A stretch of DNA of 64,000 nt from an uncultured Candidatus Saccharibacteria bacterium (lineage in GTDB: Bacteria; Patescibacteriota; Minisyncoccia; UBA6257; 2-01-FULL-56-20), in contig CAZYEL010000004.1 in the NCBI GenBank assembly GCA_964646415.1, positions 539-64,538 of the forward strand. The letters run 5' to 3'. Of the stretch, positions 1,437 to 44,366 are shown one piece after another (the first letter of the stretch is position 1; the number at the start of each line of letters is the position of its first letter). The notes under the pieces are model-generated. The model was not told the DNA's origin and did not search any database. It saw only the letters and a program-made list of their open reading frames with translations. The translations under genes were made by a program, and so were the position numbers.

Positions 1437-3536
1437 ATGATTATGGCGTCGCAACAGGCGACTCTTTTTCATAATGCAATGCCTAAAAAAGCAGTAAAAA
1501 CGAGCGTAAAAAAAGAAGAGGCGAAGGGCGGGATTCCCAAACCGACCTCTTATGAAGCGAAGGATATCTACGTCCTTGAGGGGCTTGAGCCCGTCCGGAA
1601 ACGGCCGGGTATGTACATCGGCTCCACCGGTCCCGACGGACTCCATCACCTCGTCTGGGAAGTTGCGGACAACTCGATTGACGAAGCGATGGCGGGCTTC
1701 GCAAAGAACATCACCGTGGAACTTTTGCCCGACAAAAGCGTGGCGGTGACCGATGACGGCCGGGGCATTCCCGTCGAAACCCACCATCAGACGAAAAAGT
1801 CCGCACTCGAAACCGTAATGACCACGCTCCACGCCGGCGGCAAGTTTGGCGGCGAGTCGTATAAAGTCTCGGGCGGGCTCCATGGCGTGGGTGTTTCCGT
1901 CGTGAATGCACTCTCCGAATGGCTCCGCGCGGAAGTGTGCCGCAACGGAATCAGGTATGCGCAGGAATACAAACGCGGCGCTCCAACCGCCAAGGTGAAG
2001 AAAATCGGGACGTGCGGGCACACGGGTACCAAAGTCACCTTCTTCCCCGACGCGCAGATATTTCAGGAAATCGCGTTCAACGAGAAAAGAATCTTGGACC
2101 ACCTTCGCCAGCAGGCATATCTCACGAAAGGCGTGCGCATCAACTTCTTCGACAGGCGCGGAGAATCCGTTTCCTGCCACGGATTCTACTTCGAGGGAGG
2201 GCTGCTCTCGTTCGTGAAGCATCTCACCTACGACAAGAAACGGCTCCAGGAAGATGTTTTCCATATTCAAAAAGTGCACAGCGAGCTCGACGTTGAAGCC
2301 GCGTTTCTCTACATAGACGACTCTAAAACCGAGGAGCTCTCCTTTGCGAATAACATCTATACCCCCGACGGCGGGATGCACCTCACCGGTTTTCGCTCCG
2401 CCTTGACGAGAACTTTGAATAACTATGCACGCACCGAAGGGTATCTCAAGGAAAAGGACGAGAACTTCACGGCGGACGACGTGCGCGAAGGCATGGTCGC
2501 GGTTATCTCCGTAAAACTCCGCGAACCCCAATTCGAAGGGCAAACGAAAGCCCGCCTCGGGAATCCGGAAGCACGCACCTCAACCGAAGCAGTGGTGAAC
2601 GAATCCCTCAAAGAGTTCCTTGAGCGGCATCCGCAGGAAGCGCGCCGCATCATCGAAAAAGTGCTCCTCACCGCGAAAGCCCGCATTGCCGCCAAAGCCG
2701 CGAAGGAAACCGTGCTTCGGAAAGGCGCGCTTGAAGGGCTTACGCTTCCCGGAAAGCTTGCCGACTGCACTTCGAAAGACGCATCTGAATCGGAACTTTT
2801 CATTGTCGAGGGGGATTCCGCAGGCGGCACCGCGAAACAGGGGCGCGACCGGAGAACACAGGCGATCTTCCCGCTCCGCGGGAAGCCGCTGAACGTGGAG
2901 AAGGCGCGCCTCGACAAGATGCTCGCAAACACCGAAATCCGTTCGCTTGTGGTCGCCATAGGCACCGCCATCGCCGACGAATTCAATATGACAAGCCTCC
3001 GTTACCACAAAATAATCATCATGAGCGACGCCGATGTGGACGGCGCGCACATCAGGACGCTCCTCCTCACGCTTTTCTTCCGCCACTTCAGACCCGTAGT
3101 CGACGGCGGGTATGTGTATATCGCCCAGCCGCCGCTCTACCAGATAAAATCCGGCAAGAACGTGCACTACGCGTGGCTTGATGCGGAAAAAGACAAAATC
3201 CTTGCCTCGCTCGCCGCGCAGGCAAAGGCGAAAGGCAAACCAACGAAGGCGAAAGAAGAGGACGGGAATGAAGATGGAGATGAGAATAAGGACGAAGCAT
3301 CCGGGGAAAAAATTTCCGGCGTGAATGTACAGCGCTATAAAGGGTTGGGCGAAATGAATGCCGAGCAGCTTTGGGAAACTACTATGAATCCCGAACGCCG
3401 CATTTTGAAACAAGTTACCATCGACGACGCGGCGGAAGCAGACCGCCTCTTTGACATCCTTATGGGAGACGAAGTGGAACCCCGCAAGAAGTTCATCCAG
3501 ACTCACGCCGCTTCCGTGCAAAATCTTGACATATAA
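1437..3536 (+). CDS. gyrB: DNA gyrase subunit B
   Basis: 699 aa; GHKL ATPase motifs (GLHGVG), toprim EGDSAGG, PLRGK, C-terminal QTHAASVQNLDI-like tail. Confidence 0.95.
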   Translation: MIMASQQATLFHNAMPKKAVKTSVKKEEAKGGIPKPTSYEAKDIYVLEGLEPVRKRPGMYIGSTGPDGLHHLVWEVADNSIDEAMAGFAKNITVELLPDKSVAVTDDGRGIPVETHHQTKKSALETVMTTLHAGGKFGGESYKVSGGLHGVGVSVVNALSEWLRAEVCRNGIRYAQEYKRGAPTAKVKKIGTCGHTGTKVTFFPDAQIFQEIAFNEKRILDHLRQQAYLTKGVRINFFDRRGESVSCHGFYFEGGLLSFVKHLTYDKKRLQEDVFHIQKVHSELDVEAAFLYIDDSKTEELSFANNIYTPDGGMHLTGFRSALTRTLNNYARTEGYLKEKDENFTADDVREGMVAVISVKLREPQFEGQTKARLGNPEARTSTEAVVNESLKEFLERHPQEARRIIEKVLLTAKARIAAKAAKETVLRKGALEGLTLPGKLADCTSKDASESELFIVEGDSAGGTAKQGRDRRTQAIFPLRGKPLNVEKARLDKMLANTEIRSLVVAIGTAIADEFNMTSLRYHKIIIMSDADVDGAHIRTLLLTLFFRHFRPVVDGGYVYIAQPPLYQIKSGKNVHYAWLDAEKDKILASLAAQAKAKGKPTKAKEEDGNEDGDENKDEASGEKISGVNVQRYKGLGEMNAEQLWETTMNPERRILKQVTIDDAAEADRLFDILMGDEVEPRKKFIQTHAASVQNLDI

Positions 3537-3579
3537 CAGTAAAACCTATAGGGTAGATACGTTTATTAGGCCACTTAGC

Positions 3580-3768
3580 ATGTTTCGGAAAACAACGAAA
3601 TTTCTCCAAGAATCCCGCGAAGAGCTTCGCCACGTCAACTGGCCCACACGGAATGAGGCGGTTCGCCTTACCACGGTTGTGGTCGGCTTGTCGGTGGGAC
3701 TTGCGGTGTTTTTGGGGGCATTCGATTACGGATTCACCACGCTCATAAAAACGCTCATCGCACGATAA
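3580..3768 (+). CDS. secE: preprotein translocase subunit SecE
   Basis: 62 aa from internal ATG of ORF 3451-3768; ELRHVNWPTRNEA motif followed by a single TM helix; sits directly upstream of nusG (conserved secE-nusG order). Confidence 0.8.
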   Translation: MFRKTTKFLQESREELRHVNWPTRNEAVRLTTVVVGLSVGLAVFLGAFDYGFTTLIKTLIAR

Positions 3769-3770
3769 GC

Positions 3771-4331
3771 ATGACGAAAAAACTTCAAGAAGAAGCGGGG
3801 ACGGCCGCACGGGAGTGGTACGCCGTGCAAACCTACTCCGGGTACGAGGAGGCGGTCGCGCGGTACCTGAAACAGCGCATTGAATCGCTCGCGATGAACG
3901 ACAAAATTTTCAACGTGATCGTTCCAAAAGAAAAGCGCATCCGCGTGAAAAGCGGACGCCGCCAGACAATCGAAGAGAAAATATATCCGGGGTATGTCCT
4001 TGTGGATATGGTTCTGACCGAAGACTCGTGGTATGTGGTGCGGAACACTCCCCGCGTCACCGGATTCGTGGGACCGGACAATACCAAACCCACTCCCCTC
4101 TCCAAAGCGGAAGTGGAATCGCTTCTTGCACGCATAGGGCAAGACGAGAACAAGTTCACGGTTGATATCAAACCGGGAGACTTGGTGAAAATCATCGATG
4201 GTCCGTTCAAGGAATATGATGGAAAAGTTTCCGAGGTGGATGAAACGAGAAACCGCATTAAAGTCATGGTGCCTATCTTCGGACGCGACACCGCAGTCGA
4301 ACTCGACTCCCTCCAAGTCAAGAAAATCTAG
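3771..4331 (+). CDS. nusG: transcription termination/antitermination factor NusG
   Basis: 186 aa; NGN domain (EWYAVQTYSGYE) and C-terminal KOW (GDLVKIIDGPFKEYDGKV). Confidence 0.9.
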   Translation: MTKKLQEEAGTAAREWYAVQTYSGYEEAVARYLKQRIESLAMNDKIFNVIVPKEKRIRVKSGRRQTIEEKIYPGYVLVDMVLTEDSWYVVRNTPRVTGFVGPDNTKPTPLSKAEVESLLARIGQDENKFTVDIKPGDLVKIIDGPFKEYDGKVSEVDETRNRIKVMVPIFGRDTAVELDSLQVKKI

Positions 4332-4404
4332 AGATGACTTGCCCAAACCAACCGTTTGCGGTATCCTCCTTAACACTCACCACTCAAAACTTATCACTAT
4401 CTTG

Positions 4405-4608
4405 ATGCCCCAACAGTGCTTCTTTTGTTCCCAAAACTTAAAAACAATCGACTATAAAGAAGTCGACCTCCTGAAGCGTTTCGTTTCGAGCCAGGCAAAA
4501 ATTATCGACCCGAAACACACGGGCGTTTGCGCATCACACCAGCGGAAACTTGCCGCAGCGATTAAGTATGCCCGCTTCATGGCGCTTCTGCCTTTTGTCC
4601 GCAGATAA
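4405..4608 (+). CDS. rpsR: 30S ribosomal protein S18 (bS18)
   Basis: 67 aa from internal ATG of ORF 4198-4608; IDYKEVDLLKRFVS...TGVCASHQRKLAAAIKYARFMALLPF matches the S18 signature. Confidence 0.85.
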   Translation: MPQQCFFCSQNLKTIDYKEVDLLKRFVSSQAKIIDPKHTGVCASHQRKLAAAIKYARFMALLPFVRR

Positions 4609-4653
4609 GTCTAGTCATTAGGACTTAGCCCTGCCTACCGGCAGGCAGGCATT

Positions 4654-4680
4654 GGCCATTAAAATTTAATGGCTTTTTTG
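4654..4680 (+). terminator. rho-independent terminator after rpsR
   Basis: hairpin GGCCATTAAAATTTAATGGC followed by TTTTTT. Confidence 0.55.
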
Positions 4681-4721
4681 TTATTATTCCTCTAGGCCTA
4701 AGTCCTAATGGCTAATTTTTA

Positions 4722-5321
4722 ATGGCTGGCATCAACGAAACTCTCGCCCAGTGGTTTTTCAGTCTTGCGCACATACATCCTCTGCTCGACGCAGTAATTG
4801 TTTTCCTCGCCCGCCAACTCCCGTATCTCCTCGTAATCGGTGCCGTGTTATTCATTCTTACCGAACGGAGGCGTCGTCACCGGATCTTCCTTTTCCTCGA
4901 AGTCGCGCTCGCCCTCCTCCTCTCCCGCGGGCTTCTCACCGAAGGAATCCGTTTCTTCCACCATGCCCAGCGACCCTTCGAAGTATGGCTTGCTACGCCG
5001 CTCGTGAACGAAACACTCGGGAATTCATTCCCTTCGGGGCACGCATCCTTTTATTTCGCGTTGGCAACGATTCTCCTTTTCAAAAACCGCCCGTGGGGAC
5101 TCACTTTTGGAGTGCTTGCGCTCATAAACGGCATGGCGCGCATCGCCTCGGGGGTACACTGGCCTGGCGATGTGCTCGCCGGGGCGTTCATCGGCATCGG
5201 GTGCGCGCTTATCGTCCGCCTTCTCCTTGCGCGAACCTCGAAAGCGCTCCGCATTGAAACCGCCCCGGTACCTCCTCCGCGCGAAGCACCTTCTGCCGAA
5301 ACGGGCGCAGACGCCGCATAA
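4722..5321 (+). CDS. PAP2 family phosphatase (undecaprenyl-diphosphatase-like)
   Basis: 199 aa membrane protein with PAP2 motifs PSGHA and SGVHWPGDV. Confidence 0.75.
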   Translation: MAGINETLAQWFFSLAHIHPLLDAVIVFLARQLPYLLVIGAVLFILTERRRRHRIFLFLEVALALLLSRGLLTEGIRFFHHAQRPFEVWLATPLVNETLGNSFPSGHASFYFALATILLFKNRPWGLTFGVLALINGMARIASGVHWPGDVLAGAFIGIGCALIVRLLLARTSKALRIETAPVPPPREAPSAETGADAA

Positions 5322-5357
5322 TACGCCGCGCCTTTTTATTCAATCCCCGCCGAATAG

Positions 5358-5377
5358 CCCCACGCGCGAGCGTGGGG
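5358..5377. terminator. bidirectional hairpin between convergent genes
   Basis: CCCCACGCGCGAGCGTGGGG perfect 8-bp stem. Confidence 0.4.
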
Positions 5378-5393
5378 ATGAAGCGGTGGCTGA

Positions 5394-5828
5394 TTACCGT
5401 CTCCCCATTCCAAAACCTTTTCCCATCATATTCATACCTCCGTGCGGGCGACCTTCCATAAACTTCAGCCGCTGGTCCGCCTGCGCCTGGGTAATCACAC
5501 CTTTATTCACAAGCGCTTGGAGATGCAGCTTCATCTGTGCCGTGCGGGCATCCTGGAGCTTCTGCTGTAACCGCTCCTTTGTAATACCGCGGTCGGCGGC
5601 AATCTGAAACATGTTTTTCCCCTCCGCCCAACCCCGCTTCACATCATCCACGCTTATTCCCAAGAGCGTTGCCTCGCTCTGGAACATCGCCTGATGCCGT
5701 GAGACAACTTCATCAGGGGCCAGCGTACTCCCAAAGCCGAATCCGAAACCGTGGGCGGAAGCAACGCCCGCGCCGAGAAACCCTGCGGCTATTGCGGGAA
5801 AAAATGCGTATACAATAAATTTTTTCAT
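5394..5828 (-). CDS. secreted hypothetical protein with Met/Gly-rich C-terminus
   Basis: signal peptide MKKFIVYAFFPAIAAGFLGAGVASA; C-terminal tail HGGMNMMGKGFGMGRR; start taken at internal ATG. Confidence 0.5.
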   Translation of the reverse strand: MKKFIVYAFFPAIAAGFLGAGVASAHGFGFGFGSTLAPDEVVSRHQAMFQSEATLLGISVDDVKRGWAEGKNMFQIAADRGITKERLQQKLQDARTAQMKLHLQALVNKGVITQAQADQRLKFMEGRPHGGMNMMGKGFGMGRR

Positions 5829-6045
5829 GATTTTTGAAAAAAATACTCGCCTCTTTAGAGCCGTGCACACACCACGCTACCCGCTAATTACTACAAGGAA
5901 GCGCTGAGAATTCTTTCATGTGAAAAAACGCGGAAGCCGGACTCCGCCATGTTAAAAGCCTAAACACATGGCACGTCCGGCTCCCAACCCTCCATTCATT
6001 ACTACAACATACGTGATTTTCTTATTTCAGCCCTGCTCCGAAGAA

Positions 6046-6726
6046 TCATTCCTCGATCCGTTCAATCCCATATGCATCAATCGAATTCCTCGTCCCCTCG
6101 CCGAAAATGAACACAGAGTCGCCCTCACGGAACCGGCCCATGGGAGGCCTCTTGCGCGGCGGGAACATCACGCTTGAAGTTGTGCCGTCGGCATTTTCGA
6201 ACATAAACCCGTTCGGCATCATTTGCCTCATTCTGCCGCGGTGAATGTCGCGGAAATGGGGCGTGCCAAAATGGCGGTAAAACCTGTCCGCAAAGAGCGG
6301 AAGCGAACCATGCTGCGCGGCTCCCAATACGCTCCTATGCCAGGGCGCCGCAATGAGCCCGCCCAATGCCACAATGAGAGCGACCCCCACAAGCGAATAT
6401 AACAGAGGCTTCCGGTACGCGAACTCATACTTCCGCACGAGCACTTCAAGCGCCACAATGAAGCCCACCGAGAAAAATATGAGCACCCACGGGAGCGAGC
6501 GGAGAAACGTGAGCCACCCGCGGGAACCGAACTGCGGCGCAAACCATGCGCCGCTTTGGCGGAGTGAAAACACCATGAAACTTGCAAGGTACAAAAGCGC
6601 GAGGAGAAGGAGTGCCACTCCCGCCCCGATAAGCGCGCGCTCGAACACAAAGTGCCATCGCGGGCGCATTTTCGCATGCCCCTCTCTGATAACGCCGAGT
6701 ATCTTTTCTTTAAGGTTTTGAGTCAT
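6046..6726 (-). CDS. membrane protein downstream of the ECF sigma gene (putative anti-sigma factor)
   Basis: overlaps the sigma gene stop by 17 nt; two TM helices then a soluble C-terminal domain; function inferred from position only. Confidence 0.4.
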   Translation of the reverse strand: MTQNLKEKILGVIREGHAKMRPRWHFVFERALIGAGVALLLLALLYLASFMVFSLRQSGAWFAPQFGSRGWLTFLRSLPWVLIFFSVGFIVALEVLVRKYEFAYRKPLLYSLVGVALIVALGGLIAAPWHRSVLGAAQHGSLPLFADRFYRHFGTPHFRDIHRGRMRQMMPNGFMFENADGTTSSVMFPPRKRPPMGRFREGDSVFIFGEGTRNSIDAYGIERIEE

Positions 6727-36401: not shown

Positions 36402-36635
36402 ATCGTCAAATCAATTTAATTGGGCCGAAACTCATGTAAATATGATACCTTATTTCTCCGCCAGCTTCTCTACGAAAACCCGAATCATATTTCCAATATT
36501 CCCGGCTAGCCCGACACGTACAGGGTGAAAGTTGTGGCAATTGCTCCGTTTGAGTATACTGATGGACGGCAAAAACGCAGCAGTTCCTTGGCATATTGTT
36601 TCAAAGGTTGTCAAAGGCCGAAATTTACTTTTACT

Positions 36636-37304
36636 ATGAAAAAAATCATTGTATGCCTCGCCATTCTCATACTGGGAATTGGCATGCGGAGCGGGGCGGT
36701 GCACGCAGAAACGGTTGCGTTGGGCGCGAAGCCATTGAGCGCCGCGGAAATCGCCGTGATACAGGCGAAAATAAACTCGCTCAAAGCGGCGGCGGTGGAG
36801 CTTCAGGAACAGATAGCCGCGAGGCAGAGCTTGCAACACGCGCTCGACCTTGCAGCTGCGCTTGTAGTTCAAGTGAGGGGCAAGCTTACGTATTCGAGCG
36901 TGACGCCCCGCGAGAAAGCGGTGATGCGAGTGAATCTTACGGGAATCTCCGGTCGCCTTCTTGTAATACGAGACTCCCTGAACACTCCTCCGTTAGAGAA
37001 GACGATTGCCGTTGCGCGTCCGTCGCCCAAAGCACCCATGCAACCGGTGGTGGCGGAGAAACCGAAAGAAGTGGAGCAACCGGAAAAGCCCGCGGTAGCC
37101 GCGGTAGTCCCGCCGAGTACGTCCGCCAAAGAGACCAAAGAAGCGGGGACGTCGGCGGAGAAGGAGGAACAAACCGCCTCGCTTGCGGAAAATTCCAAAG
37201 GCTGGTACCCGTTCGCCGCGGTGCTCGTCCTTGCCGGATTTGCCGCCTTCGTGTGGTGGCTCCGCAGAGAGAAGGAAGAAGTCCCCGTCCTGCCGCAGTC
37301 CTAA
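36636..37304 (+). CDS. secreted protein with C-terminal TM anchor
   Basis: signal peptide MKKIIVCLAILILGIGMRSGAVHA, Ala/Pro/Glu-rich linker, C-terminal TM followed by RREKEE. Confidence 0.5.
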   Translation: MKKIIVCLAILILGIGMRSGAVHAETVALGAKPLSAAEIAVIQAKINSLKAAAVELQEQIAARQSLQHALDLAAALVVQVRGKLTYSSVTPREKAVMRVNLTGISGRLLVIRDSLNTPPLEKTIAVARPSPKAPMQPVVAEKPKEVEQPEKPAVAAVVPPSTSAKETKEAGTSAEKEEQTASLAENSKGWYPFAAVLVLAGFAAFVWWLRREKEEVPVLPQS

Positions 37305-37398: not shown

Positions 37399-38376
37399 TC
37401 ACGCCTTTGAGACAGACTCAAAATACGCCGTGAGGCGCGCCATGCCTTCCACGATATCCTGCTCCGCTCTTCCGAAGCAAATCCGTATATGCCCCTCTCC
37501 GCCCGGACCGAACGTACTCCCCGGAACCGTCGCAACCTTATTCCGCCGCAGAATGTCGAAGCAAAGAACTTCGCTCTCCCCTGCACTTTTCACTTTGGGA
37601 AAGAAGTAATAACTCCCCTCCGGCCACGTAAAGCTCATATGGTTTTTGAACGACTCAAGGCACTTGCCCATCAACGCGCGATGCCGCGCGTACTGCGGAA
37701 AAACGTCCGGCAGAATCCGGTCTTCGAACTTCAGCGCCGCGAGCGCCGCATACTGCGAAATCACCGGCGCGCAATTCACAACGTTGATTAAGTTTTTCCG
37801 GAAACGCGGGTCGTCCGCCAATTGATACGGCTTCTCCGGACCGTAGTAAAAGTTCCGGTAGACGTCGTCCGAGATGATGAGGAGATTCCGCCGGAGCGCC
37901 AGCTCCCCTATCGCTTCGAGTTCCGCGCGGGTGAACACCATCCCCGTGGGATTATGGGGATTGCAGAGAAGGATAGCGCGGGTGGCACCGGTGATTTTCC
38001 TCTCCAAACTTTGGAGATTCGGACGCCACCCCCGCGCCTCCTCCAGTTCCTCGCTCACGAGCTTTGCGCCGCAAAGCTCCACCGCGCGCGAGTATGCGCT
38101 GTAATAGGGCGAGAAGGTGATTACTTCATCCCCGCGCCCGAAAAGCGCGAGGCATATCACCGACAATGCCTCCATGGCGCCCGCGGTAATAAGCACTTCG
38201 CTCTCCGACGTAAGCCCCCACTTTAAGGCGACCAGTTCCCGCAACTCCGGAATACCCGCGGAGAGCGAGTACCGGTCAACCTTTCCCTTCGACAACGCCT
38301 CAATAGCCGCTTTCCTGATGAGCGCATGGGACTCGAGATACGGTATCCCCTGCGCTAATGACACAACTCCCCCCAA
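37399..38376 (-). CDS. pyridoxal-phosphate-dependent aminotransferase (class I)
   Basis: NPHNPTG, SDDVY, SFSK-like lysine region; no ATG start (the ORF begins at TTG) and ~30 N-terminal residues are missing relative to AspAT. Confidence 0.75.
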   Translation of the reverse strand: MGGVVSLAQGIPYLESHALIRKAAIEALSKGKVDRYSLSAGIPELRELVALKWGLTSESEVLITAGAMEALSVICLALFGRGDEVITFSPYYSAYSRAVELCGAKLVSEELEEARGWRPNLQSLERKITGATRAILLCNPHNPTGMVFTRAELEAIGELALRRNLLIISDDVYRNFYYGPEKPYQLADDPRFRKNLINVVNCAPVISQYAALAALKFEDRILPDVFPQYARHRALMGKCLESFKNHMSFTWPEGSYYFFPKVKSAGESEVLCFDILRRNKVATVPGSTFGPGGEGHIRICFGRAEQDIVEGMARLTAYFESVSKA

Positions 38377-38855
38377 TCCGATGCGCTTCGTTTTCTATCC
38401 TTTTTATTGCCGACAATGTGATGCCCATTCGACAAATTAAAAACACCCCGCTGTTCCGACTAAGTCAGGAACAAGGACGAGGGTGCTCGTGGTACCACCT
38501 TGCTTTCGCTCGGGCGTCTCCGCGCCGAACCTTGGGCTGACGGTTACCGCTCGGTAACGTGTATAAGCTTCCTCTTCGTAACGGCGAGGTTCCGGCACTG
38601 CTCATCGCAGGCAGCTCCTGAGTGGCTCGGGAACTCGCGTTCCCCTTATTGAAACGAATGATCTCTGCCCAATCAGAAATCTCGCTTGGAAAATAGGCAT
38701 CTTTCTTGTGCCCTCTTAGAAGATTCTCGGTTCGATCCCCCGAATTTCCCCACAAGGAGGAGGCGTCCAACTCTTAATGCCTCCCAATCCCAATCCTCCC
38801 CCCACCTTCTTTCGCCACCATCTCCACTTCTCCGCCAAAGTTTATAGCCGTAGAT

Positions 38856-39221
38856 TCAGCTCGCTATTTCAAAGATCTTTTTGACTAAACCTGTCCGTGC
38901 GTAAAATGCGCGAGTTATAGGTCGGCGTTCGCCGGTTCGAGGATTTATCCCACCAGTCCCTTTTGTTCTCGCTTGTATCCATTTTCCATCCTTACCAGTA
39001 AGCGCGCCGAAGCCGCGCTTAATAAGTTTTGCGCGGATAAAGTCGTAATCAGCTTCTATCTCCTTGATAAGGTCGTCATCCTTGGTAAAATCCAAACTTG
39101 TTACGCGAAGAAGTTTTGAACCTTTAGCGTTTTTGCCGTCCCATTGAACCGCGCAGAAGGCGATGGTTTTGAGCTTTGCCCAAACATGACTTTCAAAAAA
39201 TGAATGAGCTAGATATGCCAT
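38856..39221 (-). CDS. hypothetical protein downstream of the DpnI-like gene
   Basis: 121-aa ORF in an AT-rich segment. Confidence 0.35.
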   Translation of the reverse strand: MAYLAHSFFESHVWAKLKTIAFCAVQWDGKNAKGSKLLRVTSLDFTKDDDLIKEIEADYDFIRAKLIKRGFGALTGKDGKWIQARTKGTGGINPRTGERRPITRAFYARTGLVKKIFEIAS

Positions 39222-39400
39222 AGTTGAAATTTCGGATAACTTTCTCGGTCGTGAAATTTTAAGTCCTTATCGTCTTGCCAGACGAGTTCCGTAAACTGCT
39301 CAAAGTCCTCGCTGTAGCCGAGACACATTACTTTCAGACGATTGAGAGGATTGAATCGTAAAATAACTTTTGCCAAAAATGGCGTAAGTGGAATTTCCAT
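39209..39400 (-). CDS. hypothetical small protein
   Basis: 63-aa ORF overlapping the next ORF by 13 nt in another frame; the two may be one frameshifted gene. Confidence 0.25.
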   Translation of the reverse strand: MEIPLTPFLAKVILRFNPLNRLKVMCLGYSEDFEQFTELVWQDDKDLKFHDRESYPKFQLWHI

Positions 39401-39402
39401 AG

Positions 39403-40173
39403 TTAAGTAAGGCGATAATATCCGCGCGATACAAAATCCAGATAGCTCTTATCACGCAAAACTTGTAATTGCTGGCGTATCTTATCCTTGATATGTTTGT
39501 TTTCTGGATGAAGTACACCCAATTCTTTTTCAAATGCATATACATCTTCGAGCATAAATTCACGCTTCCCAAGTTTTTCAATACATCGCATAACATCAAG
39601 TATCCAACCTTTCGCCGATATTTCTTTTTCTTCTCGCAAAAACAGTGTTTTTTGCCATTCTGCCAACACTTTTTCTTTTGGCTCGACCGCACCGTTTTTG
39701 ATGTAAAAAACTTTACCCGTCTGCGGAATACTCTTGAGTAAAATGTTGCATCCAACCCAACCAGCACGGCGCGCTGTCGGCGAAAGCGGCTTTCTCTTTT
39801 CAATAATTTCTGGAACAAAAAAATGTTTGGGTATGACAAAGAAATTCAGAACCGATAGATTTTGTAAGTCGTAATTTAGTAAGAAAAAATTGGGGTTATT
39901 GCTCGCCTGTAATCGTTCGAGCATTGTTCGATATGCGCCATCAACAATTTTCGAGCCAACAGAGTCCTGTTTGCTCTTGAGTTCGTAATCTTCTCGACAA
40001 TTTGAGCAAAGAAAATCTGCGACTGGCTGATTATTCGGGTATTTGTCTATATCCAAATGCCCGCAATTTGGGCAATAAACTGAATTATCAACCCAGTACT
40101 CGGTTAAAACACGAGCTCTTTGCGAAGCACTTTTGTAATTTGTCGCAATATTTTCGTCAAAAGTTAATTTCAT
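39403..40173 (-). CDS. DpnI-like methyl-directed (Gm6ATC) restriction endonuclease
   Basis: N-terminus MKLTFDENIATNYKSASQRARVLTEYWV...YCPNCG...PVADF and C-terminal KIRQQLQVLRDK closely parallel DpnI; the region is AT-rich. Confidence 0.8.
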   Translation of the reverse strand: MKLTFDENIATNYKSASQRARVLTEYWVDNSVYCPNCGHLDIDKYPNNQPVADFLCSNCREDYELKSKQDSVGSKIVDGAYRTMLERLQASNNPNFFLLNYDLQNLSVLNFFVIPKHFFVPEIIEKRKPLSPTARRAGWVGCNILLKSIPQTGKVFYIKNGAVEPKEKVLAEWQKTLFLREEKEISAKGWILDVMRCIEKLGKREFMLEDVYAFEKELGVLHPENKHIKDKIRQQLQVLRDKSYLDFVSRGYYRLT

Positions 40174-40433
40174 AGTCCGTTGCTCTTGTCCCAATCTCCC
40201 TTATTGACGCTGACCATTCGTCCGGCATGGACGGTGATGCCTCCGTTGGAAAGATTGTAGGGAGGATCGGCAAAGACCATATCAACCGAGTTTTCTGGAA
40301 ACTCGGCTAACACATCCAAGCAATTTGCTTGGTAGAGTTTGAACTTCTGCTTTTCATAGTATGCCTGCGTAAGGGCCGTTCGCGGCTCGTTTTCAACTCG
40401 AACGTCCAATGTAGGAGAAGTGAGGCGGGGCAT
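40170..40433 (-). pseudogene. truncated N6-adenine DNA methyltransferase (DpnA/M2.DpnII-like), N-terminal 87 aa only
   Basis: MVFADPPYNLSNGGITVHAGRMVSVNKGDWDK; its stop TGA overlaps the DpnI-like ATG (ATGA). Confidence 0.7.
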
Positions 40434-40495: not shown

Positions 40496-41488
40496 CTAAT
40501 GCCTCACCATTCCAATCCTCGAACCGCCCTCCTTCACCACCACCTCCACTTCTCCGCCAATCGGGAAGGTGATTATGGGCGTCGTGTGCCCGAAGTCCAC
40601 GTTCGCAGTGACGGGCAGGTGCGCAAGCTCTTTTTTTGTTTTCACAATTTGCGTGAGGAGTTCCCTCGTCATCGCCGTTTTTGGTTCGAATCTGCCGAAG
40701 ACAATGCCGCGCACTTTTTCGAACCCGGGCTGATGGATGATGGCCTGTAAAAATCTATCAACTCCTGCCACGTGGGTTTCGTCGTCGTCTTCCAAAAATA
40801 AAATACTGTCGGCGATATCGGGCATAAACTCGGTGCCGTGCAAGAGATTGAACGTGCCCATGTTGCCGCCGATGATGGTTCCCTGCGCGCTCCCCTCGTT
40901 CAACACCCACCACCCCTCGTTCCGCATGAAGTTCCGGTGTTCCTGGTCGTTCGCCCAACGGTCGTCGCTCCATTGCTCCGAAGGCAACACTTCGAACGGC
41001 GCCTCGGACATCAGGCATTTCTTGAAGTATTCGAGCGTGTAGTCGAAGCCCTTCTTGGCGCCGAAAGAAAAGAAGTGCGGCCCCGAGTACGTTACGAGTC
41101 CCGTTTTCGCAAAAATGGCATTGCCGAGCGCGGTGATGTCCGAATACCCGCAAAGAATTTTGGGGTTCTTCCGTATCAAGTCGTAGTCCAAGTACCGCAA
41201 AAGCTGGTTCGAGTTGAAACCGCCGATGACCGTGATGATGAGTTGTATGCTCGTGTCGCGAAACGCGTCATGCAAATCCTCCACCCGGTGCGCGATGGAC
41301 GAAGAACTGAACTCATCTATCTCCATCACGTATTTCCCAAAACTCAAATTCAAACCAAGCTCCTTGAACCGCGCCTTCGCCTGCGTCTGCAATTCTTCAG
41401 TCATCCAAGGCATCGCCAAACTCCGCGAGGGCGTGATGACCCGTACGCCGTCGCCGGGCTTGAGTTTTGCGGGGAAGATTTTGAGCAT
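40496..41488 (-). CDS. LD-carboxypeptidase (peptidase S66)
   Basis: GYSDITAL nucleophile motif, overall length and pattern. Confidence 0.8.
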   Translation of the reverse strand: MLKIFPAKLKPGDGVRVITPSRSLAMPWMTEELQTQAKARFKELGLNLSFGKYVMEIDEFSSSSIAHRVEDLHDAFRDTSIQLIITVIGGFNSNQLLRYLDYDLIRKNPKILCGYSDITALGNAIFAKTGLVTYSGPHFFSFGAKKGFDYTLEYFKKCLMSEAPFEVLPSEQWSDDRWANDQEHRNFMRNEGWWVLNEGSAQGTIIGGNMGTFNLLHGTEFMPDIADSILFLEDDDETHVAGVDRFLQAIIHQPGFEKVRGIVFGRFEPKTAMTRELLTQIVKTKKELAHLPVTANVDFGHTTPIITFPIGGEVEVVVKEGGSRIGMVRH

Positions 41489-43857: not shown

Positions 43858-44283
43858 TTGAACCGAAGCGGAAAGGACGATTTCAAGTTTTTCTTTGGCG
43901 GCAAATTCATTACTGACCAAGAGTATCAGGCACTGAAAAACCGCCTCATCAAAGAAAAGACGGCTCTTGAGAGCGAGCTAAAGACCCACGGCAAGACGAT
44001 TGAGGAGTGGGTTGAGTTAAGCGAGCGGACTTTCAACTTCGCCCGTTACGCCCAAATGTGGTTCGCCAAAGGCGATATGGAAACACGGCGAGCTATCTTT
44101 GCCGCTTTAGGTTCGCACCTCATTATAAAAGACCAGAAACTCAATATAGAACTACATCCTTACTTCAAAATCATCTTTGAAAACCTTGAAGCAGTGGAAA
44201 AGGAGCTTATCAAAGTTAGAACCTCCGAAAGTGTAGTGAATAGAAGGCAAATCGCCGAAATTTTGGCGAAATGTCCTACTCTG
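43858..44283 (+). pseudogene. recombinase/integrase-like C-terminal fragment (coiled-coil region) abutting tRNA-Ser
   Basis: ORF 43858-44355 has no N-terminal catalytic domain; its 3' end reads through the tRNA-Ser gene; assignment is tentative. Confidence 0.35.
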
Positions 44284-44366
44284 CGGAGGGTGAGGGACTC
44301 GAACCCTCGAGGGATTGCTCCCGCACGCTTTCCAAGCGTGTGCCATAGCCGCTAGGCGAACCCTCC
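44284..44366 (-). tRNA. tRNA-Ser (anticodon GGA)
   Basis: minus-strand GGAGGGTTCGCCTAGCGGCTATGGCACACGCTTGGAAAGCGTGCGGGAGCAATCCCTCGAGGGTTCGAGTCCCTCACCCTCCG: 7-bp acceptor, long variable arm, T-loop GGTTCGAGTCC; CCA not encoded. Confidence 0.85.

Follow-up and report, generated by a model that had tools for sequence, protein, structure and literature searches.

Among the closest described counterparts of the locus analysed here is that of Streptococcus pneumoniae, in which a DpnI cassette (dpnC/dpnD) stands against a DpnII cassette (dpnM-dpnA-dpnB) in an 'intercellular cassette mechanism' (Lacks et al. 1986, cited in PMC3812788). In Neisseria, the low-GC gene drg (NmeBII/Drg) at the leuS/dam locus is inserted in dam, which is truncated, and fragments of leuS are duplicated (PMC4269198, PMC516771). 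The winged-helix fusion endonucleases comprise further m6A-dependent type IV systems (PMC11037411).

The window, which is the whole 64-kb stretch of DNA analysed, contains a tightly packed, low-GC block of four ORFs of about 1.6-1.7 kb, located between ldcA and a T-box-led aminotransferase gene. The genome is that of a Candidatus Liptonbacteria, and SRR12113419 is one of the samples in which this population occurs. To our knowledge, the polymorphism between DpnI and a methylating system is a textbook case confined so far to pneumococcus and Neisseria. Patescibacteria are ultra-small and uncultured, and are thought to depend on DNA uptake. The block covers 39403-40433 and parts beyond, reaching about 38775, and all of its genes lie on the minus strand. 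Its features are:

40497..40560, minus strand: genuine 3' terminus of ldcA, which is copy A of an imperfect direct repeat of 64 nt (repeat search, Pfam)
40170..40433, minus strand: 87-aa ORF, stub (M') of a beta-class N6-adenine methyltransferase (homology, tblastn)
39403..40173, minus strand: intact type IIM restriction endonuclease of the DpnI family, 256 aa (Pfam, PDB 4ESJ)
39209..39400, minus strand: o63, a conserved 63-aa orphan gene (conservation in relatives, HMM)
38856..39221, minus strand: 121-aa ORF, stub ('H) with the C-terminal half of a MutH/Sau3AI-family endonuclease (homology, tblastn)
38775..38838, minus strand: ldcA 3' end again, as relic copy B with a stop codon, at the far edge of the block (repeat search)

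Quite probably, this block is a core of DpnI and o63 inside both ends of a gutted restriction-modification operon, with a switch in the handling of GATC and with the two ends acting as arms for spreading. The same order of four ORFs recurs in the NCBI MAG GCA_016190325.1 and in the separate assemblies of five runs (16 contigs), so that a single-assembly error is excluded.

The match of the ORF at 40173..39403 to the Pfam profile PF06044 (DpnI) covers positions 1-182 of its 183 (E 1.8e-81, 272.6 bits against a cut-off of 26.7), and its residues 187-254 match PF17726 (DpnI_C) over positions 2-69 of 70 (E 5.6e-31; 107 bits, the cut-off being 23). Residues 1-254 align to the solved R.DpnI structure 4ESJ (E 6.8e-87) with 129 of 254 positions identical (51%). 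The N-terminal domain is of the PD-(D/E)XK type with a zinc site, and the C-terminal domain is a winged helix that aligns to the C-terminal domain of 4ESJ. The catalytic residues E25, D53, E64, and K66 are all kept at the same positions as in 4ESJ, as are the zinc cysteines C34, C37, C56, and C59, which form two CXXC motifs; the catalytic and zinc-binding residues of R.DpnI at those positions have been described (PMC3424567). The pN/pS ratio against relatives is far below 1, indicating strong purifying selection. Judged by its sequence, the product is a full-length DpnI orthologue, an ordinary, canonical enzyme and no new fusion. The first-pass annotation of this DNA had already named a DpnI-like ORF with an N-terminal catalytic and zinc region and a C-terminal winged helix; the best matches to the DpnI/Dam-replacing family, the two Pfam domains, and the eight kept residues agree with it.

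Residues 25-87 of the 87-aa ORF share 75-86% identity with the N-terminal ~63 residues of complete PF01555 methyltransferases (269-285 aa), which bears out the earlier reading of this ORF as a truncated beta-class N-terminus. The homologous part lies at ~40367..40173, is preceded by 24 codons of unrelated sequence, and has ACG where the native ATG stood. The native promoter region and start codon of the methyltransferase are missing in the window, and this counts against the main explanation. The stub keeps motif IV DPPY (FADPPYNLSNGG), ends at residue 66 of a 270-aa homologue, and lacks the SAM-binding motif I (FxGxG; DPFTGSSTTG near residue 230 in the intact form). A tblastn search of the whole 64-kb window with the intact methyltransferase finds residues 2-66 only, with the C-terminus nowhere in any frame; the truncation is therefore real, and the check for a longer methyltransferase hidden by sequencing errors yields none in the window. 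The stub scores 13.8 bits against Pfam N6_N4_Mtase, below the cut-off of 26.7, and 1.5e-09 against the NCBIfam CcrM-type adenine methyltransferase; the best named match of the intact enzyme is also CcrM-type, far under the cut-off. By the motifs it keeps and lacks, the ORF is a dead remnant of a beta-class adenine methyltransferase and not a functional member of the family. No other N6_N4 or D12/Dam-like methyltransferase is found in the 64-kb window (best D12 tblastn E 0.51). The TGA of the stub (40172-40170) overlaps the ATG of DpnI (40173-40171) as ATGA, a stop/start overlap noticed at first pass. Transcription of DpnI probably includes the stub or reads through it, and the overlap probably couples the translation of the two.

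The 121-aa ORF at the other end has 1011 homologues, of which the full-length ones are 206 aa and carry PF02976 (MutH). It aligns to residues 98-206 of such proteins with 70-74% identity (91% outside an 8-aa indel), and it matches the NCBIfam Sau3AI family at 1.9e-4. Its homology starts at AHSFFESH, residue 98, in both alignment and tblastn. None of the reading frames contains the N-terminal 97 residues, and the catalytic D...E-x-K (YELKSV region, ~55-70 of the 206-aa form) is gone. Its ATG sits within the last codons of o63. As read from these alignments, the ORF is solely the remnant of a nuclease of the MutH/Sau3AI family.

Intact operons in related Patescibacteria consist of a 269-285-aa PF01555 methyltransferase and a 206-aa MutH-like nuclease, with a stop/start overlap of 4 nt in locus L087, where the operon lies at 3192-4621, and a distance of 3 nt between the genes in L089. 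The order in L087 is tRNA-Ser(GCT), methyltransferase, and MutH, both genes being intact; the order in L034 is tRNA-Ser(GCT), methyltransferase stub, DpnI, o63, and MutH stub. The flanks of these two loci are homologous on both sides (78-86% nt), and the intact system and the DpnI composite occupy one chromosomal site, as in an allelic replacement. Since intact operons of this kind exist, one of them sharing its tRNA-Ser site with a composite, the replaced system is, on sequence grounds, the methyltransferase and MutH/Sau3AI pair and not dpnM-dpnA-dpnB. Remnants of a DpnII cassette are not found in the window, which has no D12 methyltransferase and no Pfam DpnII-family match, and its nuclease remnant is of the MutH/Sau3AI family. 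The first-pass annotation had seen the footprint of a DpnII-type cassette replaced by a DpnI-type one; the replacement of a methylating restriction system by a DpnI-type gene stands, and the assignment to dpnM-dpnA-dpnB falls. The comparison with relatives that it proposed gives an intact and replaced allelic pair elsewhere (L087 and L034), whereas the window's own site at ldcA holds an NgoPII-type restriction system in L090, the closest relative found. Neither an intact GATC operon nor an empty site was found at the ldcA locus in L090 (other system) or L091 (no synteny), a further point against the main explanation. Intact methyltransferases of the stub's family are present in 0 of 80 fetched DpnI loci, all being cut before motif I, and stubs are entirely missing from many DpnI loci. 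In L094 and L095, a non-homologous 244-aa nuclease fills the DpnI slot of the same scaffold; in our own reading, this protein has a winged-helix-like N-terminal region and a putative nuclease-like motif.

Of all 4-mer palindromes, GATC shows the strongest depletion in the window, with 47 sites observed and 239 expected (O/E 0.20, five-fold). The old operon would have methylated and cut GATC, a specificity suggested by the MutH/Sau3AI membership, the GATC depletion, and the logic of incompatibility. The block ends with the first ~66 codons of the methyltransferase on one side and the last ~109 codons of the MutH/Sau3AI-type endonuclease on the other, and as the missing middle held the SAM-binding motif and the nuclease catalytic motif, both old enzymes are dead. 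A methylating enzyme and DpnI are incompatible; the swap would therefore have had to remove the methyltransferase and, after the loss of methylation, the nuclease as well. The host's own GATC sites would now be left unmethylated, and incoming Gm6ATC DNA, such as that of phage grown on neighbours that still have the methylating system, would be cleaved.

Like the pneumococcal system, the locus has a predicted Gm6ATC-dependent DpnI (51% identical) that is mutually exclusive with a GATC-methylating system at one locus, homologous flanks are the presumed route of the swap, and a second small gene lies behind the nuclease gene, o63 being likened to dpnD by placement. In contrast, a beta-class methyltransferase and a MutH/Sau3AI-type nuclease were replaced here, and the pneumococcal counterparts are the Dam-type DpnM, DpnA, and R.DpnII. 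The arms are the ends of the replaced genes instead of neighbouring genes, and no named family was found to resemble the 63-aa partner. The locus resembles Neisseria drg in its low-GC DpnI-family gene (43% identical to that of the window) inside a truncated methyltransferase gene, in the edge duplication of a housekeeping gene (leuS there, the ldcA tail here), and in its position at a recombination hot spot. In Neisseria, however, a solitary dam is lost, whereas here a whole restriction-modification operon is gutted and both gene stubs are kept; a search of the gonococcal locus finds no homologue of o63. While drg belongs to one genus, the composite is found across many lineages of Patescibacteria and in at least one Omnitrophota MAG, and the polymorphism is thus now seen in an uncultured groundwater bacterium, in many relatives, and outside their phylum. 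Like the winged-helix fusion endonucleases, which are stand-alone methyl-adenine-sensing nucleases that do not share a cell with GATC methyltransferases, the enzyme is predicted to avoid such co-residence; unlike them, it is a canonical DpnI, and only L094 and L095 carry the different 244-aa protein in its slot. The new elements are the different victim system, the recognisable stubs of both victim genes, and a previously undescribed 63-aa partner gene. The locus is a concrete example of restriction systems displacing one another via recombination, and the stub and junction are a natural marker for tracing such exchanges in metagenomes.

Both stubs may serve as homology arms, by which the composite would spread among Patescibacteria through recombination with resident intact operons; such recombination would keep the stubs resembling genes under selection. 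The truncated copies are 76-97% identical to some intact protein (35 of 38 at 84% or more), and the stubs interleave with intact genes and form no clade of their own. The L094 stub differs from intact L088 with a pN of 0.02 and a pS of 0.31, and the pS between the window stub and the L094 stub is 0.84. Between composite loci, pS is saturated, and pN is 0.03-0.27 for the methyltransferase stub (0.03-0.10 among the window, L034, L046, and L053) and 0.10-0.15 for the MutH stub. Values of pN and pS are given instead of dN/dS because synonymous sites are saturated in almost all pairs. The left junction varies between loci, with at least eight truncation points, and the right one has three. Across the window, L034, L046, L053, L044, and dozens of ORFs from the database, the point where o63 meets the MutH stub shifts by no more than about 2 nt, and the identical junction is paired with both indel types of the MutH tail. 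Being both mosaic and conserved, the stubs have apparently recombined repeatedly with intact operons. Recombination alone makes no junctions, and therefore additional deletions or independent events are needed; as read from the sequences, small junction differences are derivable from one another by short slippage deletions.

It is possible, though doubtful, that the composite goes further and is a self-spreading 'gene-targeting' cassette that homes into a widespread GATC operon, with the 63-aa protein easing a lethal switch. A methyl-dependent nuclease gene (DpnI or the unrelated 244-aa nuclease) and o63 would be carried between the operon-end arms, enter distant Patescibacteria by natural transformation and homologous recombination, and destroy the resident operon. 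The arms would stay gene-like via constant recombination, and o63 may let the cell live through the switch, its product perhaps slowing or damping the nuclease. If so, the host would flip from methylating GATC to attacking methylated GATC.

A different reading of the same stubs is that they are working small proteins under selection, perhaps regulating DpnI or binding GATC DNA. Both ORFs are open in many lineages despite a DpnI divergence of 25-30%, pN is 0.03-0.15 among the window, L034, L046, and L053 at saturated pS, and in every case the MutH stub carries an ATG in frame that overlaps the stop of o63. The window MutH stub has zero changes at 61 positions conserved in intact proteins, and no decay gradient towards the junction is seen in the MutH stub once gaps are excluded, although a pure arm-refreshment model predicts one. 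Nevertheless, taken as a set, truncated MutH copies depart from the conserved positions at about three times the rate of intact ones; these positions were defined on the intact set itself, which makes the deviation and gradient tests partly circular. The methyltransferase stub is moreover part of a single domain of the Rossmann type, from which the SAM-binding half is gone, and the MutH stub lacks its catalytic motif. The former varies in length from a cut before DPPY (at PENSIDM) to about 180 residues, the latter starts anywhere from residue 82 to 113, and some copies carry a frameshift or an internal deletion (L049, L044). Together with the many stub-free DpnI loci and the interleaving of stubs with intact genes, this makes working stubs quite improbable.

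Spread without arms, in which DpnI (with o63) inserted independently many times by a site-directed or illegitimate process and the stubs are young, accounts for the many left junctions, for the closeness of the stubs to intact genes, and for the non-homologous 244-aa nuclease in the scaffold of L094 and L095. It is unlikely given the constancy of the junction between o63 and the MutH stub, the possible interconversion of small junction differences by slippage, and the lack of a recombinase, integrase, or terminal repeat alongside the DpnI (and o63) unit. The source is a metagenome-assembled genome, and the truncation could in principle be an artefact of assembly or sequencing, or DpnI itself an inactive relic. 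Such an origin is extremely improbable, as the order is identical in the 16 contigs of the NCBI MAG and several separately assembled runs, the methyltransferase C-terminus and MutH N-terminus are absent in any frame, and DpnI is full length with all catalytic and zinc residues under strong purifying selection. The preferred explanation remains the DpnI and o63 core within the two operon ends.

The edges of the block are formed by ldcA, an LD-carboxypeptidase gene (41488..40496) matched by Pfam Peptidase_S66 and S66C. The two 64-nt copies of its 3' end, A and B, bracket the block with 83% identity and a spacing of 1722 nt, and their translations are IGGEVEVVVKEGGSRIGMVRH and FGGEVEMVAKEGGGRIGIGRH, each followed by the stop. 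Copy B is 78% identical to the ldcA end of L090. The GC content of the block is 0.39-0.47 compared with 0.54 for the window, in line with the AT-richness noted at first pass, and the GC3 of DpnI is 0.35 compared with 0.60-0.73 in flanking genes. The structured-looking region 38440-38775 was considered as a tmRNA/tRNA integration target; it contains no tRNA or tmRNA and is a weak T-box leader. A 21-nt inverted repeat bracketing DpnI (39360-39380 and 40150-40170) is due to chance, being unconserved in 23 other loci and scoring at shuffle level. Promoter and terminator scans are at chance level. Phages and plasmids were rejected as vehicles: no full-length DpnI relative occurs among the phages searched, and the sole full-length matches in the plasmid collection are two 2.17-Mb Neisseria gonorrhoeae records labelled plasmids.

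The o63 gene, which like the downstream endonuclease remnant was missed by the first-pass annotation, begins 2 nt past the DpnI stop. It keeps its length and lies 1-7 nt behind DpnI in about 27 related loci, and an HMM built for it detects it in 29 of the 80 DpnI-relative loci. An origin as a frameshifted MutH N-terminus was discarded, since o63 does not align to MutH and stands alone as a conserved gene after DpnI where the MutH stub is absent. No Pfam family matches it at E up to 10, and its model matches no PDB fold. Its homologues in the database number 80, none of which has a name or a Pfam domain, and a profile search gives 58 representatives, nearly all of 37-116 aa, with four longer outliers of 167-1226 aa. 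The pN of o63 is 0.09-0.2 at saturated pS, and its AlphaFold2 model predicts a small alpha/beta fold (pLDDT 83.6).

The 256-aa protein encoded in the window is, on sequence, a bona fide and apparently active DpnI orthologue. It matches Pfam DpnI (E 1.8e-81, profile positions 1-182 of 183) and DpnI_C (E 5.6e-31), and aligns over its whole length with the R.DpnI structure 4ESJ (E 6.8e-87, 129 of 254 aligned residues identical), which bears out the DpnI-family assignment made for 39403-40173 in the first-pass annotation. R.DpnI has the catalytic residues E25, D53, E64, and K66 and four cysteines in two CXXC zinc motifs (PMC3424567). All of these are kept at the same positions in the alignment of the window protein to 4ESJ. 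Relative to other copies there are few non-synonymous differences and synonymous sites are saturated; pN is 0.16-0.20 among the window copy and the related loci L034, L046, and L053, and 0.07-0.24 over all pairs. The species-representative genome set contains close relatives (63-86% identity) at no fewer than 182 places, mostly in Patescibacteria MAGs, with some in Omnitrophota, Elusimicrobia, and others. No full-length relative was found in the phage collection, and none in the plasmid collection apart from two Neisseria gonorrhoeae records of 2.17 Mb that are labelled plasmids. The enzyme is an ordinary member of its family, and its surroundings comprise the following features, in reading order:

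41488..40496, minus strand, ldcA (LD-carboxypeptidase)
62-nt spacer, minus strand, between ldcA and the 87-aa ORF
40433..40170, minus strand, 87-aa ORF, methyltransferase stub
40173..39403, minus strand, 256-aa ORF, DpnI
39400..39209, minus strand, 63-aa ORF, o63
39221..38856, minus strand, 121-aa ORF, MutH/Sau3AI remnant, then 17 nt before the ldcA relic
38838..38775, minus strand, 64-nt relic of the ldcA 3' end
38685..38470, minus strand, weak T-box leader (Rfam)
38376..37399, minus strand, class I/II aminotransferase gene

The four ORFs are tightly packed, with a 4-nt ATGA overlap between the 87-aa and 256-aa ORFs, a 2-nt gap before the 63-aa ORF, and a 13-nt overlap of the latter with the 121-aa ORF. 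The same arrangement is found in 16 contigs, including the Candidatus Liptonbacteria MAG GCA_016190325.1 and several independently assembled runs, so the truncations are not an assembly accident. Promoter scans of the block gave only chance-level results. A 21-nt inverted repeat around the DpnI ORF (39360-39380 and 40150-40170, 18 of 21 complementary) is probably due to chance and is unconserved in 23 other loci. At 24.7 bits the T-box leader falls well below the gathering score of 93; the hit spans the entire model and includes the canonical AAGGUGGUACCACGAG box.

Over residues 25-87, the 87-aa ORF shares 75-86% identity with the N-terminal ~63 residues of intact 269-285-aa PF01555 methyltransferases. 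The stub contains motif IV (DPPY) and ends at residue 66 of a 270-aa homologue, far short of motif I (DPFTGSSTTG); a tblastn search with the intact enzyme found nothing beyond it in the 64-kb window. The truncated beta-class methyltransferase with a TGA/ATG overlap, as first annotated, is therefore correct. DpnI would be translationally coupled to the stub in the window genome; the overlap is not universal across loci. The native methyltransferase ATG is ACG in the window (40362-40367, minus strand), and the first 24 codons of the stub are unrelated sequence, open by chance. The window stub also lacks the TAAAAT-like box that precedes the start by ~10 nt in intact loci and in other composites.

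The first-pass annotation overlooked the other two ORFs. Homology identifies the 121-aa ORF as the C-terminal half of an endonuclease in the MutH/Sau3AI family: it has 1011 homologues, the full-length ones being 206 aa with PF02976, and its homology begins at their residue 98 (AHSFFESH). The MutH N-terminal part with the D...E-x-K motif is absent from the window locus in every frame. The 63-aa ORF was considered as a piece of this remnant and rejected, being a separate conserved gene. It has constant length, lies 1-7 nt after DpnI in ~27 other loci, and is detected by HMM in 29 of 80 loci. No library searched gave it a name or domain. Its AlphaFold2 model is confident (pLDDT 83.6) and shows a small alpha/beta fold, for which no PDB match was found. 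A profile search of 1.84 billion proteins returned 58 representatives, nearly all 37-116 aa, with four longer outliers (167-1226 aa).

Intact operons in other Patescibacteria (L087, L088, L089) comprise a PF01555 methyltransferase followed directly by a 206-aa MutH-like nuclease, with a 4-nt stop/start overlap in L087. L087 and the composite L034 (methyltransferase stub, DpnI, o63, MutH stub) each lie directly after a tRNA-Ser(GCT) gene and share homologous DNA upstream, across both stubs, and downstream. They form an allelic intact-versus-replaced pair, in which ~0.9 kb of operon interior is exchanged for ~0.96 kb of DpnI and o63. Among 80 loci with DpnI relatives, 15 keep the methyltransferase stub, the MutH stub, or both, and none has an intact methyltransferase of the operon family. 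The replacement proposed earlier thus stands, but its DpnII identity does not: because these intact operons and the allelic pair are seen, the victim is read as a methyltransferase plus MutH/Sau3AI pair, not the pneumococcal dpnM-dpnA-dpnB, of which it is probably the functional equivalent.

It is established that every MutH/Sau3AI enzyme characterised so far has GATC as its target, and a GATC adenine methylase and DpnI are mutually incompatible. No other palindromic tetranucleotide in the window is as depleted as GATC (47 observed versus 239 expected, O/E 0.20); the mean O/E over the pooled DpnI-relative loci is about 0.7. Family membership, incompatibility, and depletion together point to GATC specificity of the lost operon. 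The host would no longer methylate its own GATC, and incoming Gm6ATC DNA would be cleaved. The swap would have had to kill the methyltransferase, lethal together with DpnI, and also the nuclease, lethal once methylation was gone; this double need would explain why exactly the operon interior is missing. The intact DpnI gene, the dead stubs of both genes, and the allelic relationship elsewhere are direct observations. In L011 (3416-4183) and L012 (3664-4431), from MAGs labelled Saccharibacteria, a complete divergent beta-class methyltransferase has its stop overlapping the DpnI ATG; its identity to the GATC-operon type is 38%, and its coexistence with DpnI presumably reflects a different specificity. 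Behind the intact operon of L089 (3140-7654) come a HARE-HTH protein, a 470-aa protein, and a D12-class (Dam-type) methyltransferase, which gives a two-methylase layout reminiscent of DpnII.

Between composite loci pS is 0.6-0.8 (saturated), while pN is 0.03-0.27 for the methyltransferase stub (0.03-0.10 among the window, L034, L046, and L053) and 0.10-0.15 for the MutH stub. On these values, neutral decay of the stubs since one ancient junction is excluded. A real function of the fragments is unlikely: they lack the catalytic or cofactor halves, differ in length between loci, and are broken in some copies (L044, L049), and many of the DpnI loci have no stubs. At conserved positions, deviations are ~3 times as frequent in truncated as in intact copies, which suggests relaxed constraint, although the test is partly circular. 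The copies showed no gradient of decay in the direction of the junction. The most economical interpretation is that the stubs continue to trade sequence with intact operons, serving as homology arms upon entry of the composite into another host. Across the window, L034, L046, L053, L044, and the dozens of database ORFs that start MxxLxHSFFESH, the o63/MutH junction differs by no more than about 2 nt. Truncated ORFs with this common junction are split between the two states of an 8-aa indel that likewise divides the intact proteins; outside it they are 76-97% identical to some intact protein (35 of 38 at 84% or more), often nearer to it than to other truncated copies. Between the L094 stub and the intact L088 gene pN is 0.02 and pS 0.31; between it and the window stub pS is 0.84. 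The excess deviation of truncated copies and the missing gradient sit less easily with the homology-arm reading, as do the junction positions, at least eight left and three right, which require extra deletions or independent events; read by eye, some left forms appear derivable from one another by short slippage deletions.

The AT-richness reported for the block is confirmed, with DpnI at GC 0.39 and GC3 0.35 against GC3 0.60-0.73 in flanking genes; the methyltransferase stub is more host-like (GC3 0.57). A 64-nt direct repeat, the last 21 codons and stop of ldcA, brackets the block (83% identical, 1722 nt apart). The duplicated tail may stem from a circular fragment that integrated by a single crossover, or from a donor ldcA end carried along in the transfer. 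Duplicated leuS fragments, analogous to this repeat, and a truncated dam occur at Neisseria drg loci (PMC4269198). The closest relative found for the host locus, L090 (LdcA 90% aa, 86.6% nt), has a different restriction system directly after ldcA, made up of an 80-aa ORF, an RE_NgoPII nuclease, an m5C methyltransferase, and a Vsr nickase (4193-6707), which marks the site as a restriction-system hot spot. The relatives compared showed no empty site there and no intact GATC operon. GGCC is also rare in the window (97 versus 252 expected, 2.6-fold under; other 4-mer palindromes have O/E of at least 0.73), which fits the NgoPII-type (GGCC) system of L090. A gene at window 36531-37304 (plus strand), ~3 kb downstream of the cassette, corresponds to one at L090 2291-3068, just upstream of ldcA (88% nt identity), so the neighbourhood has been rearranged. 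The sole tRNA gene in the window, tRNA-Ser(GGA) (44283-44366, minus strand), lies ~3 kb upstream of ldcA and borders a stretch that differs from L090.

The replacement logic matches that of the pneumococcal DpnI/DpnII cassettes (Lacks 1986, as cited in PMC3812788), and of the neisserial dam-replacing gene (PMC4269198, PMC516771). New are the methyltransferase plus MutH/Sau3AI victim, the stubs of both its genes kept as flanks, the orphan 63-aa partner, the wide spread of the composite among Patescibacteria with mosaic arms, and an unrelated protein in the DpnI slot of the same scaffold. The last is seen in L094 (2853-4366) and L095 (1419-2932), which comprise a 75-aa methyltransferase stub, a 244-aa gene, o63, and a 121-aa MutH stub. 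A BLASTP comparison of the 244-aa protein with DpnI yields E 1.9; a precomputed Pfam record lists NmeDI_C, but a direct Pfam-A scan gave no family. Read by eye, its N-terminal region resembles a winged helix, and D..EVEH looks like a nuclease motif.
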